A stretch of DNA of 32,000 nt. It comes from Candidatus Heimdallarchaeota archaeon. Lineage in GTDB: Archaea > Asgardarchaeota > Heimdallarchaeia > Heimdallarchaeales > Heimdallarchaeaceae. Each line of letters opens with the position of its first letter. Position 1 is the stretch's first letter. The position numbers were made by a program, and so were the translations under genes. The stretch is taken from NCBI GenBank assembly GCA_030668875.1, contig DAOVER010000008.1, positions 1 to 32,000 on the forward strand, in the 5' to 3' direction. The notes under the pieces are model-generated. The model was not told where the DNA came from, did not search any database, and saw only the letters and a list, made by a program, of their open reading frames with translations. Shown here piece after piece: positions 27,211 to 32,000 of this stretch.

Positions 27211-28248
27211 TTGACACAAGATACTAAACCATCAACTAGAGAAGTACTTACAAATGCAACTTTTATGGTTCTGTTTGCAGCACAATTTACTGAGAATATA
27301 GGTAGATCAATTTCGGGTTTAGCACTAGAATTTCTTATCTTTGGGCTTACTGAAAGTCCGTTGTTAATGGGGGTTCTCTCAATAATATGGTTACTTCCTT
27401 TTGTCATACTAGCACCAATAGCTGGAGCGCTAGCTGATAGATTTGATCAACGAAAACTTATGTTTTATTCCAATATTGTAAGTGCTATTGCATCACTAGG
27501 TTTTGTAATTATCTATTTATTCAATGATCAGTTAACACAAATACATTATTCGGTTGGACAACCTGTTCTAAATTACCTGAATGTAGCTGGACAGCCCATA
27601 CCAAATTACCTTCATGTTCTTTGGCCCTTATTCGTTCTTTGTTTCATAAATTCCTCATCAGCAGCATTCTTCTTCCCTTCAAGAAACGCATATACTCGAT
27701 TAATAGTTAAGAAAAAGAATCTACTAATAGCTAATTCAGTAGGATCCTCGGTTTTTCAAGTCGCAACAATTATTGGATTTGTTCTTGCAGGATTATTAGC
27801 TGCTAAAAGTTATTTGTTAAGTTTCATAGGTGATGCATCAACTTTCGCTGTATCAGGTATTTTGATAGGTGTCATTTTCTTCATAGGTAAGAAGTCCCCT
27901 GAGGTTGTAAGAGAGAAAAGCAAAAACATTAAGCAGGAAATGAAACAATTTAAGGAGGATATTGCAGTTGGGTATCGAACAATTCGCAAGCATCCCAAAA
28001 TATCTTACATGCTCTTAGTTTTCTCTTTCATTACCTTTTCATTTGGAGCTATTAGTGTTCTCTTCATTGTAATTCTTCAAGGTGAAATGGGGTTAGGTCA
28101 GACGTGGTACGGAATATAGCAAGCTTTAATGGGAACTTCTGGAATTATTACAGCTGTAACCCTTATGCGAATAGGGAGAATAAAACGCAAAATACTACTT
28201 CTAAATATCACTTTTAGTGCGGTAACGCACGTTATGAAACTTGGTTAA
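27211..28248 (+). pseudogene. Truncated MFS transporter (H+ antiporter/MefA-like)
   Basis: TTG start after AGGTGA; PIAGALADRFDQRKL motif A. In-frame TAG at 28117-28119, after which the frame stays MFS-like (QALMGTSGIITAVTLMRIGRIKRKILLLNITFSAV) until about 28222. The last helices are missing. Confidence 0.8.
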
Positions 28249-28513: not shown

Positions 28514-29713
28514 ATGGAAGAAAATTGGGATGATCCAGAAGATCACATCATCAAATATGCTGTTCCAGCAGATCTCAAAGAACCTAATTACTATGTGCTT
28601 TCATCATATTATGATTTACAATGGATGCAAGGTGTATATGGTTCTCCTGCTAAACGTGCCCCAGATACACACGTATGGGAGACTGAAATAGGTAGTAGTT
28701 GGACTGTCTCCGATATTATCAATGACAAAATTAACATTTCACTAACACTAGATCCCAATGCTAGATTTAGCAATGGTGACTATGTCTTGCCTTCAGATGT
28801 TGAATACAGCTATAAGTTACATATGACTCCTGCTGTTGGCTCTGGTTCATACGGAACTTATACATACTGGTTTGCTTCAAATGATTCAATTTCAGTTGTT
28901 GGTCCTGATGTGGCCGGTGGAGAACTTCTCTTCGAATTAACTGGTGTTTTCAATTTAGCTGAAAGCCTTCTATACAACCCTCTTATTCAAAAGACAACTG
29001 TTGAAGCAGCTATCAGCGCACATGGTTATGATATATTCAACGAAGTTCCATTAGACCCAGGATCAAATGTAGGTGACGCTCTAGTCATGTCTTGTGGTCC
29101 GATGATGTTAGCAGATTATGATCCAGTACTAAGTGTTGCACATTGCGTACCTAATCCATATTGGCATGGAACACCTTTAGTTCTGGAAGATTTCTATCTT
29201 ACCTACATTTCTGGTAAAGATAGTGCTGTTGCTTCATTAATTGCGGGTGAAATCGACATTATGGATGCACAATACTTCCCGGACCTATCTGATTTTGAAG
29301 GTGTTGCAAGTATTGAAGGTGTTTTAGTTAAAGACCCTTCACACCAGGAAATGTCAATTAATATGAAACATCCCGTCATGGGAACAGGAGAATTAACTCC
29401 AGTAGGAACTGCAGAAGCAGTTAAATTTATTAGACAAGCAATCAGTCATGCAACTCCTCGTGATATTATCGTTGACGAGATTTTGAATGGTCTTGGTGCT
29501 CCAGCTACAACTTCTGTACCTGATTCAGTCGTCGGTTATGATGCTACACTTGAACCATACACCTACGACTTAGATGTTGCTCGCTCTTTAGTTGAAGATG
29601 CTGGATTCCAAATAATATTTGAAATTCCAACAGAGGTTGGTGTTACTGGTCTAGTCTTTCTATCCTTCCTAGGATTAGCTGCTATGTTAGCTTTCAAGAA
29701 ATATAAAAATTAA
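28514..29713 (+). CDS. C-terminal part of a family 5 (peptide) ABC substrate-binding protein with C-terminal membrane anchor; 5'-truncated
   Basis: LDPNARFSNG..VLPSDVEYS, MSCGPMML, ASLIAGEIDIMD, INMKHP, IRQAISHATPRD.IV..IL.G and PYTYDLDVARSL motifs; C-terminal VTGLVFLSFLGLAAMLAFKKYKN. No signal peptide; in-frame TAA at 28499-28501. Confidence 0.8.
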   Translation: MEENWDDPEDHIIKYAVPADLKEPNYYVLSSYYDLQWMQGVYGSPAKRAPDTHVWETEIGSSWTVSDIINDKINISLTLDPNARFSNGDYVLPSDVEYSYKLHMTPAVGSGSYGTYTYWFASNDSISVVGPDVAGGELLFELTGVFNLAESLLYNPLIQKTTVEAAISAHGYDIFNEVPLDPGSNVGDALVMSCGPMMLADYDPVLSVAHCVPNPYWHGTPLVLEDFYLTYISGKDSAVASLIAGEIDIMDAQYFPDLSDFEGVASIEGVLVKDPSHQEMSINMKHPVMGTGELTPVGTAEAVKFIRQAISHATPRDIIVDEILNGLGAPATTSVPDSVVGYDATLEPYTYDLDVARSLVEDAGFQIIFEIPTEVGVTGLVFLSFLGLAAMLAFKKYKN

Positions 29714-29907: not shown

Positions 29908-32000
29908 ATGGCAAAAGTCGTTTTATCCAAAATACAGATCCCGAAGGACAATACCTTAAGTTTACTTAGGAAAATTGTTACTTTACATTACTATGACCAG
30001 ATTATAGTCGATCCTCAAAGTCCAAAGGAGCAAGCAAGAATTCAAGAACTGAAAGATAACCTTGAAAATTATTTCTTACGCTTGGTAAAGATAGGCAATT
30101 TAATCAAAATACCTTTTGACGATTTTGCAAAAGAAGAGGAACACTCTTTTGAGACAACCTTAGACATTTCAAAACTGCAAAGTAAGATAGAATCTTTTCT
30201 TAGTCAATATGAAGAAAAAATGTCAACTCAAGTTGCTAAACATAAGCAATTAAAAAAAGAAGAACGCATTCTTGCAGGTTTAAACAAGTTCAAACGTCAA
30301 ATTGAAAAAGACAAATTTACAATTGACCTTTTATCTTCCAATTCAAGAACTTTTACTATTTACGGTGAGATTCCTTCATCCTATGAAGAAATCCTTCGTT
30401 TTTATTTAAATGAAATCACTGGTGGTAAGATATTCTTGTGGAGTGTTGCAACAGAAGGAAGAAAGACAAAAACAATAATTTGCATTTCCTTATTGGATTT
30501 CAAGGAAAATGTAGTAGAGATTCTTGAACAAAATTACTTTGAACCTACAATTTTAGACTTATCTTCTCTTAAAACCATTGATGACTATACCTCTTCTACA
30601 ACGGTAAGCGATCTTTATTCCATGATAAATTCTGACCTAGTAAAAATAGAGCAAGAATTAGAAGGGTATCTAACAGATTTAACCGAACAAATTGTTTTCT
30701 ACATTAACTCAATAAAAACTGAAGTCACTCTTCTAACATTAGAAGAGAAAGGTCGAACCGATGAAAAAATGTTTACAATCTGGGGATGGGTAGAGAAAAA
30801 AAATTACGACATTTTTGTAAATGAGATAGAGTTACTGAAAATGCAACCCAAATTCTTTGTTCTTGATGATGTTCCATTTTCATATCAGAAACCAAAGAAA
30901 GAGGAGGATGAGCTGAAAATAGCAAAACCTGAAGTTGTTCAAAAAGGAAAAGAGAAATATGTACCACATTTATCTCATAGTGGGGGTGAACCTGAAGGTG
31001 GGATGTTTTTCCCAAAAAAGGCTTCTTTTATAAAAATGGAGACCAAAAGTAAATACAACCGTCAGTTTATTTCATTTGTTCGTTCTTTGAATTTAATCCA
31101 TCCGATAAAAATTGGTTCTTTGGACAATATTACAATTGATTCTCTTACCAAGAGACGTATGGAACTTACACAGTATCTAGCAAGGGTAAAAAAAATCAGA
31201 GAAATGTTGAATCTAAAGAAATCATCTGGTGATTCTTGTGATCAATTCCAAATTGTTGATGATCTAGCTCATTCTAAAGCATTTATAGAGAACTTTCTCA
31301 ATGAATTCGAGAGAGAAGTTGAAGCAACCTTTACAGAGTATGATCAATTGAAAAAAGAGAGGGATCAGCTTAAACTATATCGACCTTCAATTGAAATAAT
31401 GAAAAATGAAGTTATGGAATTCATGCTATCTGAAGGAGGTTCTCAAACAGTTACATTCTTGGGTTCAATTCCAAAAAGCCATCTTAAAGCAGTTAAATTC
31501 TTTGTAAATGAAGTTACAGACAGTACTATTATGTTCCGGGCAACAGAGTCATTAGGTTCAAAAAAGAACGAGAAGAATTTGTTTATTTTAGCCTTAAAGG
31601 AATATGAAAACGCGATTTCCAGAGTTTTGAATGAATATTCATTTCAACCAATTGAATATGATTTGGACTTACTTCAGCAAGAAGATTCACTTGAGGAGAA
31701 AAAGAATGATCTCATTCTAAAGATTGAGAAATTGGAAAATAGATTAAGCGAATTTCCTAACGAAATCGGTGATAGAATATCAGCGGTAGAAGAACTAATC
31801 TCTGTAGAATTGGATAGGATTAAAACAGAAGAAATTTTTCAAGTTTCTGAAGGTAAGACGATTATGTGGGGATGGATTCCAGGGCATGCTATGGAGACTC
31901 TATTTGAGAAAAAGGAAGAATTGAATTTTAAGCTTAACATAACTGTAACAGACAACGTACCTCTTCCAAATCCATCTATTACAAAAAGAAGTCAGTTATT
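29908..32000 (+). CDS. atpI: A/V-type ATP synthase subunit I (subunit a) with tandemly duplicated N-terminal domain; runs off window end
   Basis: Stop-free frame 1 from ATG 29908 (697 codons), absent from the ORF track because its stop lies outside the window. Two copies of the subunit I cytoplasmic domain: TIWGWVEKK and IMWGWIPG (the GWVP motif), YGEIP/LGSIP and coiled-coil linkers. The second copy starts MFFPKK. The membrane domain is not visible. Confidence 0.72.
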   Translation, partial: MAKVVLSKIQIPKDNTLSLLRKIVTLHYYDQIIVDPQSPKEQARIQELKDNLENYFLRLVKIGNLIKIPFDDFAKEEEHSFETTLDISKLQSKIESFLSQYEEKMSTQVAKHKQLKKEERILAGLNKFKRQIEKDKFTIDLLSSNSRTFTIYGEIPSSYEEILRFYLNEITGGKIFLWSVATEGRKTKTIICISLLDFKENVVEILEQNYFEPTILDLSSLKTIDDYTSSTTVSDLYSMINSDLVKIEQELEGYLTDLTEQIVFYINSIKTEVTLLTLEEKGRTDEKMFTIWGWVEKKNYDIFVNEIELLKMQPKFFVLDDVPFSYQKPKKEEDELKIAKPEVVQKGKEKYVPHLSHSGGEPEGGMFFPKKASFIKMETKSKYNRQFISFVRSLNLIHPIKIGSLDNITIDSLTKRRMELTQYLARVKKIREMLNLKKSSGDSCDQFQIVDDLAHSKAFIENFLNEFEREVEATFTEYDQLKKERDQLKLYRPSIEIMKNEVMEFMLSEGGSQTVTFLGSIPKSHLKAVKFFVNEVTDSTIMFRATESLGSKKNEKNLFILALKEYENAISRVLNEYSFQPIEYDLDLLQQEDSLEEKKNDLILKIEKLENRLSEFPNEIGDRISAVEELISVELDRIKTEEIFQVSEGKTIMWGWIPGHAMETLFEKKEELNFKLNITVTDNVPLPNPSITKRSQL

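Follow-up and report, generated by a model that had tools for sequence, protein, structure and literature searches.

Does the gene that opens at position 29,908 of this stretch encode a rotary ATPase stator subunit with two collar domains, and if it does, what is the extra domain for? The stretch, which we call the window, is the first 32 kb (32,000 nucleotides) of an 89-kb contig (C91, GenBank DAOVER010000008.1) from a Candidatus Heimdallarchaeota archaeon of the family Heimdallarchaeaceae. The gene encodes subunit I/a. Stalk number and collar make-up are the main architectural differences among the classes of rotary ATPase: F-type enzymes have one peripheral stalk, A-type two and V-type three. 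Subunit C is a collar subunit found only in eukaryotes. The collar of A-type enzymes is the N-terminal domain of subunit a alone, and it holds both E-G/H stalks (PMC6131620). The V-ATPase collar is made of that domain (a-NT) together with subunits C and H and holds three stalks; according to the same paper, A- and F-type enzymes lack a homologue of subunit C (PMC6131620). A preliminary description of the stretch had proposed that the gene encodes a subunit I whose cytoplasmic domain is duplicated in tandem, and that the extra copy may be a precursor of subunit C. The duplicated architecture and its fold stood up to analysis, but the evolutionary link to subunit C did not. We argue that the long protein is a native stator whose domain duplication is ancestral to the family, and that its first copy would be an added anchor for the E-H stalks. 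We give this reading as a whole about an even chance of being right.

The frame is unbroken from 29,908 on the forward strand and is still open at 31,998, with 697 codons inside the window. Beyond the window it reaches C91:33105, which makes a product of 1065 amino acids. Its parts, and the gene that follows it, are these:

29908..32000, + strand: 5' part (697 of 1065 codons) of an A-type ATP synthase subunit I/a gene (open frame, PF01496, NCBIfam).
29908..30882, + strand: copy 1 of the cytoplasmic N-terminal (collar) domain, residues 1-325 (AlphaFold2 model, Foldseek, VIA-align, NF004428).
30883..31002, + strand: charged linker, residues 326-365, which connects the end of copy 1 with the start of copy 2 (29 long forms aligned).
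31003..32000, + strand: copy 2 of the cytoplasmic N-terminal domain, residues 366 to about 700, its last few residues outside the window (AlphaFold2 model, Foldseek, NF004430).
Outside the window, + strand: membrane domain, residues about 700-1065, with R947 (alignment to mammalian a1).
C91:33107-34099, outside the window, + strand: subunit C/d gene (PF01992, E 1e-29).

BLASTP, hhalign and the NCBIfam profiles agree with the claim that this is a subunit I with a tandem duplication of its cytoplasmic domain. BLASTP of residues 1-365 against residues 366-720 gives one alignment of 280 columns, which pairs residues 52-324 with residues 420-686 (25% identity, 47% positives, E 9e-18 for this single comparison). 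All the segments that had been quoted as alignable between two copies in one frame fall inside it. Separate alignments and profiles were then built for copy 1 and copy 2 from 29 full-length homologues each, and hhalign matches the two profiles with a probability of 100% (E 6e-42, 319 columns). This match spans the first strand through the terminal DVP motif, so the duplicated unit is the entire cytoplasmic domain. Scanned alone, copy 1 matches NF004428 at E 1.6e-7 (N-terminal-domain profile positions 103-326) and copy 2 matches NF004430 at E 8.3e-13 (N-terminal-domain profile positions 43-297). The charged linker of about 40 residues described between the copies is present at residues 326-365. 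Mean pairwise identity of the linker is 37% among the 29 long forms.

The predicted structures agree with the sequence comparisons. The AlphaFold2 model of copy 1 has a predicted local distance difference test score (pLDDT) of 86.6 and a predicted template modelling score (pTM) of 0.76; the pLDDT for copy 2 is 79.8. The order of secondary-structure elements is identical in the two models, and in both the first and last strands share one lobe. Foldseek against the PDB matches copy 1 to eukaryotic subunit a (E 2.5e-11), to the N-terminal domain of Meiothermus subunit I (3rrk, E 9.5e-11) and to Thermus subunit I (E 5.5e-10). The corresponding values for copy 2 are 5.6e-14, 1.1e-12 and 5.0e-11. 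VIA-align superposes copy 1 on yeast subunit a (8eas_a) with Z 18.5 and a root-mean-square deviation of 4.0 A over 306 residues, and on Thermus subunit I with Z 15.4, covering residues 1-332. Whether copy 1 adopts the a/I N-terminal fold was a question left by the preliminary description, and in the model it does. Both copies are modelled as the hairpin fold of the subunit a/I N-terminal domain, with two alpha/beta lobes and a long coiled coil.

The rest of the protein leaves little doubt about its family: it belongs to subunit I/a by sequence, fold, catalytic Arg and gene context. The whole protein matches PF01496 (V_ATPase_I) at E 1.5e-34 and 119.6 bits, with a curated cut-off of 30.7, and a genome search finds PF01496 above its cut-off in two stretches of the window's genome. 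The NCBIfam subunit I models (PRK05771 series) cover residues from about 408 to 1054 at E 5.6e-49, and the best score of 167.3 bits misses the equivalog cut-off of 670 by far. The protein is a divergent lineage of the subunit I family, the equivalog of no curated NCBIfam subgroup. A membrane domain had been predicted downstream, and it is there with the essential Arg. R947 in SFSRIMALLMVH pairs with the essential Arg of mammalian a1 in SYLRLWALSLAH (the equivalent of Vph1p R735), and the alignment with mammalian a1 also has the C-terminal LRLHWVEF motif kept. The membrane domain is the best-conserved part of the protein, with a mean pairwise identity of 67%. ATPase genes were likewise expected nearby; the subunit C/d gene starts 1 nt after the subunit I stop codon and the c gene lies 7 kb downstream. 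The pairing of subunit I with C/d is kept in six other long-form genomes.

It is worth considering next where the duplication came from. We surveyed 399 Asgard genomes in 33 families with copy 1 as the query, and scored the doubled form as two copy-1 matches within one frame of about 1040-1070 residues. It was found in 27 of the 29 other Heimdallarchaeaceae genomes, across 4 of the 5 genera, and in 0 of the 32 other Asgard families sampled. A survey of subunit I across archaea had been suggested as a check, and within this Asgard sample the doubled form is found in Heimdallarchaeaceae only. The homologues of 1036-1076 residues, down to 37% identity, come from Heimdallarchaeota or Heimdallarchaeaceae wherever a source is named. 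Three other families of this order also yield copy-1 matches, all of them single-domain subunit I proteins of 684-732 residues, at E of about 1e-7. The genes for these proteins are followed by C/d, and their alignment covers residues from about 366 to 1050 only. That is copy 2 plus the membrane domain, which makes these sister-family proteins the orthologues and copy 1 a segment added at the N-terminus. Nearly all single-domain relatives score better with the copy-2 hidden Markov model (HMM) than with the copy-1 HMM.

A maximum likelihood tree of 51 N-terminal domains (LG+C20+F+G4 by posterior mean site frequency, PMSF) has good separation between the copies. Copy 1 forms a clade with support 100/99, copy 2 forms one with 99/92, and the two clades are sisters at 99/99. 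The single-domain relatives all fall outside this pair, the nearest being P0051 (81/86). This implies one intragenic duplication in the ancestor of the Heimdallarchaeaceae. The stem branch is 0.92 for copy 1 and 0.35 for copy 2, which means copy 1 evolved faster (about 2.6 times) after the duplication. The doubled form is thus best explained, from sequence data, as a single family-specific tandem duplication of a cytoplasmic domain of about 330 residues within the gene, and not as an ancestor of subunit C.

Copy 1 has been kept since then. Pairwise ratios of nonsynonymous to synonymous substitution (dN/dS) among four close relatives are 0.15-0.21 for copy 1, 0.07-0.36 for copy 2 and 0.09-0.13 for the membrane domain, values that indicate purifying selection on copy 1. 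Among 29 aligned copy-1 sequences 24 columns are invariant and a further 29 nearly so, and the frame is unbroken in genera whose copy 1 is 29-86% identical.

Which enzyme does the long protein serve? The window's genome (G000) carries genes for rotary ATPases in two sets. Set 1 forms a compact operon on a different contig and holds A (with an insert the size of an intein), B, D, a Usp gene, E, a 676-residue subunit I and a duplicated c. Set 2 is dispersed and holds A-B, the long subunit I with C/d, c, E, F with a candidate H, and a fragment of D at the end of a contig. The nearest protein to the set 1 subunit I is Enterococcus hirae NtpI (E 2.5e-28). This likeness, together with the patchy distribution of the operon in Heimdallarchaeaceae (it is absent from genomes G015, G016 and G011), suggests that set 1 is a horizontally acquired V-type pump. 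Eukaryotic V-ATPases have four-helix proteolipids instead of a single-hairpin c. The set 2 c subunit, encoded 7 kb downstream of the C/d-long I pair, is a single hairpin with one carboxylate, as in ATP synthases, which suggests that the enzyme of the long protein is a synthase rather than a V-type pump. G015 and G016 (both single-contig) and G011 (95% complete) each have one A/B pair, and the long form is the one PF01496 protein that they contain. These three genomes therefore encode a single rotary ATPase, and the doubled subunit is its stator.

The stalk genes of set 2 need a closer look. Its E and H share one phyletic pattern in Heimdallarchaeaceae, each being found in 28 of 29 genomes. The open reading frame (ORF) on contig C2 taken as H has a weak match to PF16999 (E 0.17). 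A PF03179 search for a second H/G subunit gave no match, and jackhmmer started from the set 1 H subunit returned only the query itself. The C2 ORF is accepted as a candidate H on its sequence character, its place directly upstream of F and its sharing of the phyletic pattern of E.

Several minor points on these genes should be recorded. The set 1 operon lies at C40:46498-56995 of G000 (L013:4499-14995), where A is a 1165-residue frame whose insert splits the PF00006 match; the set 2 A of the same genome (599 residues) is without an insert, unlike the set 1 A. The only A subunit of G015 and of G016 sits in a 1096-residue frame with an intein-sized excess (G015:C1:1845540-1846127 and G016:C1:1975248-1975835). 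The native A-type ATP synthase genes are spread over at least 5 loci, on contigs C12, C38, C2 and C91 in G000. This dispersal is not an effect of assembly, since it is also seen in the single-contig G015, where the loci are at 1.61, 1.81, 1.845 and 2.22 Mb of C1. One genome of the same family, G014 (genus g4, 89% complete), has no match to PF00006, PF01496 or the set 2 E or H. Either its ATPase contigs are missing from the assembly or this lineage is without a rotary ATPase.

The long protein can now be compared with the known systems. The prokaryotic subunit I proteins (Thermus thermophilus 6r0z/5gar chain N, Meiothermus ruber 3rrk, Enterococcus hirae NtpI 8wci) are of the same PF01496 family. 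Like them it has a hairpin domain followed by a membrane domain with the essential Arg, and its gene is beside C/d. Each copy also aligns structurally with them over its full length (Thermus Z 15.4; 3rrk at the E values given above). The difference is that they have one N-terminal domain in about 650-700 residues, and here there are two in tandem in 1065. In sequence it is nearer to eukaryotic subunit a (Vph1p/Stv1p, ATP6V0A1-4) than to the Thermus or Enterococcus proteins. Among solved structures Stv1p is its best sequence match (E 1.3e-19), subunit a is the best structural match for both copies (Z up to 18.5, with the Foldseek values above), and the Arg motif and LRLHWVEF are shared. However, eukaryotic subunit a also has a single N-terminal domain, and its collar is completed by separate C and H subunits, whereas here an extra collar-type domain is supplied in cis. 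Two N-terminal domains set the long protein apart from every member of subunit I/a that we found. Subunit C (Vma5p 1u7l, ATP6V1C) is elongated, with two globular lobes and a coiled coil, and resembles both copies in this general build. By analogy the proposed role would be common to both, an additional collar element that anchors a stalk (E-G in the case of subunit C). Copy 1 is bound covalently into a longer chain and goes back to a duplication within one family, whereas subunit C is soluble and free; the two have no sequence relationship.

Copy 2 keeps the canonical place, continuous with the proton/ion half-channel domain that bears R947. Copy 1, which keeps the full two-lobed hairpin fold, is joined to it through the linker of about 40 residues. 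Since both chain ends of the fold are in the membrane-proximal lobe, the tether would run from proximal lobe to proximal lobe. Copy 1 could then lie across the central stalk from copy 2. The collar would be extended from about 1/3 to about 2/3 of the circumference, into the region where C and H sit in eukaryotic V-ATPases. Copy 1 would most probably serve as at least one extra anchoring lobe for E-H peripheral stalks, and the outcome could be either a third stalk or a more symmetric redistribution of the usual two. A third stalk would be sterically possible because the A3B3 head has three equivalent B sites. Copy 1 would then be a tethered functional analogue of subunit C with an independent origin. 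That it binds an extra stalk is plausible. The further step, in which the Heimdallarchaeaceae enzyme has a two-domain collar in one chain and three peripheral stalks and so reached the stator design of the V-ATPase independently, is possible, though we hold it only tentatively and would not bet on it.

It must be noted that some points weigh against copy 1 as a stalk anchor. Set 2 has only one E and one H gene, and a genome does not give the number of stalks. The contact of copy 1 with E or H is a prediction. The stem of copy 1 is about 2.6 times faster than that of copy 2, and copy 1 has invariant motifs of its own, such as DPQSP.EQARIQ, that could mark another partner. A model of the complex of copy 1 with E (residues 1-125) and the H candidate, with alignments as input, scored 0.00, but it was run without controls and has no bearing on binding either way.

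The strongest competitor turns two of these points to its own use. Copy 1 could be a regulatory or docking hub, with lipids, regulators or other complexes as its partners or with an auto-inhibitory action on the enzyme. Its long stem (0.92 vs 0.35) and the invariant residues that it does not share with copy 2 are what one would look for in such a hub, and eukaryotic a-NT acts as a signalling hub of this kind (PMC10313074 describes it as a regulatory hub). However, copy 1 has kept the whole fold, both lobes as well as the coiled coil, and this is more than a docking site needs. No candidate partner was found either. We think a hub is unlikely, yet it comes nearest to the stalk anchor.

A second alternative concerns the linker. 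Its variable part ends with a motif, VPHLSHRG...GG, that is kept across genera, and LFPKK then starts copy 2. The motif is at window positions 30985-31002 and in the homologues (residues about 352-365), and it could serve for cleavage, for binding or as a hinge. One can imagine a scenario where cleavage in the linker, or an internal start, yields two products, a soluble copy 1 that resembles subunit C and a canonical subunit I of about 700 residues. The conserved VPHLSHRG is in line with this, and in the window's genome copy 2 starts with a Met. However, among the 29 long forms the relatives have L, F, I or A in place of Met366, and we reject an internal start there on that account. Two homologue searches found no separately encoded copy-1 protein. 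The short copy-1 matches they gave (five in one search, P0048 and P0049 in the other) are long forms cut off at a contig end or by a truncated gene call. Copy 1 is seen only fused, so a stand-alone soluble copy 1 is not supported, and the fusion is kept in each genus that bears the doubled form. We regard two products as improbable.

A third alternative, that of the preliminary description, is that copy 1 is an evolutionary intermediate or precursor of eukaryotic subunit C. The host is an Asgard archaeon, and subunit C does resemble the fold, as the preliminary description had stated. Foldseek matches yeast Vma5p (1u7l) to copy 1 at E 3.8e-7 and to copy 2 at E 4.7e-9, both with probability 1.00, and the mammalian C chains are likewise significant matches to both models. 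The Foldseek TM-scores for subunit C are 0.23-0.33 (0.27-0.29 for 1u7l), and the a-NT matches are much better. No subunit C chain is among the 50 VIA-align rows shown (lowest Z 8.8), which is no evidence that the folds differ. In the models, then, the likeness to subunit C is generic to the a-NT fold and slightly stronger in copy 2 than in copy 1.

The sequence comparisons agree. PF03223 (subunit C) is unmatched at E up to 1 by the whole protein or by either half, and it is unmatched anywhere in the window's genome. An exhaustive HMMER search of 1.84 billion representatives with the copy-1 profile gave no subunit C among its matches. The 32 proteins it did match are all subunit I, either long forms, fragments of these, or single-domain proteins of 615-730 residues. 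The duplication is limited to 1 of 33 families, and copy 1 is the sister of copy 2 (99/99), inside the subunit I clade of the Heimdallarchaeales. The tree covers the N-terminal domains of the two copies and of single-domain relatives, not those of eukaryotic subunit a, nor subunit C; the HMMs of copy 1 and copy 2 do not match either of two divergent subunit a sequences from Cryptosporidium. A literature search, uninformative in part, turned up no claim of a common fold or origin for subunit C and a-NT. With no sequence link, and with a Foldseek likeness that is no stronger for copy 1, the precursor scenario is unsupported. What was found is a lineage-specific duplication with no special affinity to subunit C, an outcome that the preliminary description itself had named as refuting the evolutionary link, and we consider it very improbable that copy 1 is on the line to that subunit.

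The idea that the gene is a mis-assembled repeat or carries a drifting, functionless domain can be dismissed with near certainty: copies only 25% identical are too unlike for assembly collapse or expansion, an independent Logan contig spans the stretch without joint or indel, 27 other genomes share the architecture (two of them single-contig), and dN/dS of 0.15-0.21 with a frame intact across genera is not decay.

The stalk anchor therefore stays our preferred reading, and it is worth stating what it would mean. A collar domain was duplicated and then kept through the whole history of an Asgard family, and in some genomes it is part of the sole ATP synthase. This makes collar-domain duplication a viable route to a larger stator, and it offers a concrete candidate for a prokaryotic enzyme with a larger collar or a third stalk. 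If there is a third stalk, a prokaryote would have reached a three-stalk stator by duplicating the fold that probably also yielded eukaryotic subunit C. This is a parallel, family-specific event, which is a reason for caution against reading it as the ancestor of subunit C, and it has no direct bearing on eukaryogenesis. Our search found no published description of a doubled collar domain, most subscription journals being outside it. The literature covered was on ATP synthase phylogeny, a 2026 preprint on rotary ATPase evolution, a review of peripheral stalks (PMC6131620), Asgard eukaryogenesis and the Heimdallarchaeum genomes. Two circular Ca. Heimdallarchaeum genomes, derived from enrichments, have been described without discussion of the ATP synthase (PMC8813620).

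The surroundings of the gene have some points of their own. About 9-11 kb past the end of the window (G000:C91:40906-43459; L002:11407-13960) there are two Snf7 genes of the endosomal sorting complex required for transport (ESCRT-III), which match PF03357 at E 1.4e-18 and 3.1e-23. This pair is followed by an AAA ATPase of the Vps4 type that has MIT and Vps4_C domains. These ESCRT genes directly adjoin the ATP synthase c-subunit gene, which is divergently oriented. Within the window, upstream of subunit I, a frame of the major facilitator superfamily (MFS) type lies at 27211-28119 (PF07690); at 302 residues it is short for the family and may be truncated. After a gap of about 400 nt comes, at 28514-29713, a family-5 solute-binding protein (PF00496) whose C-terminal tail is hydrophobic.

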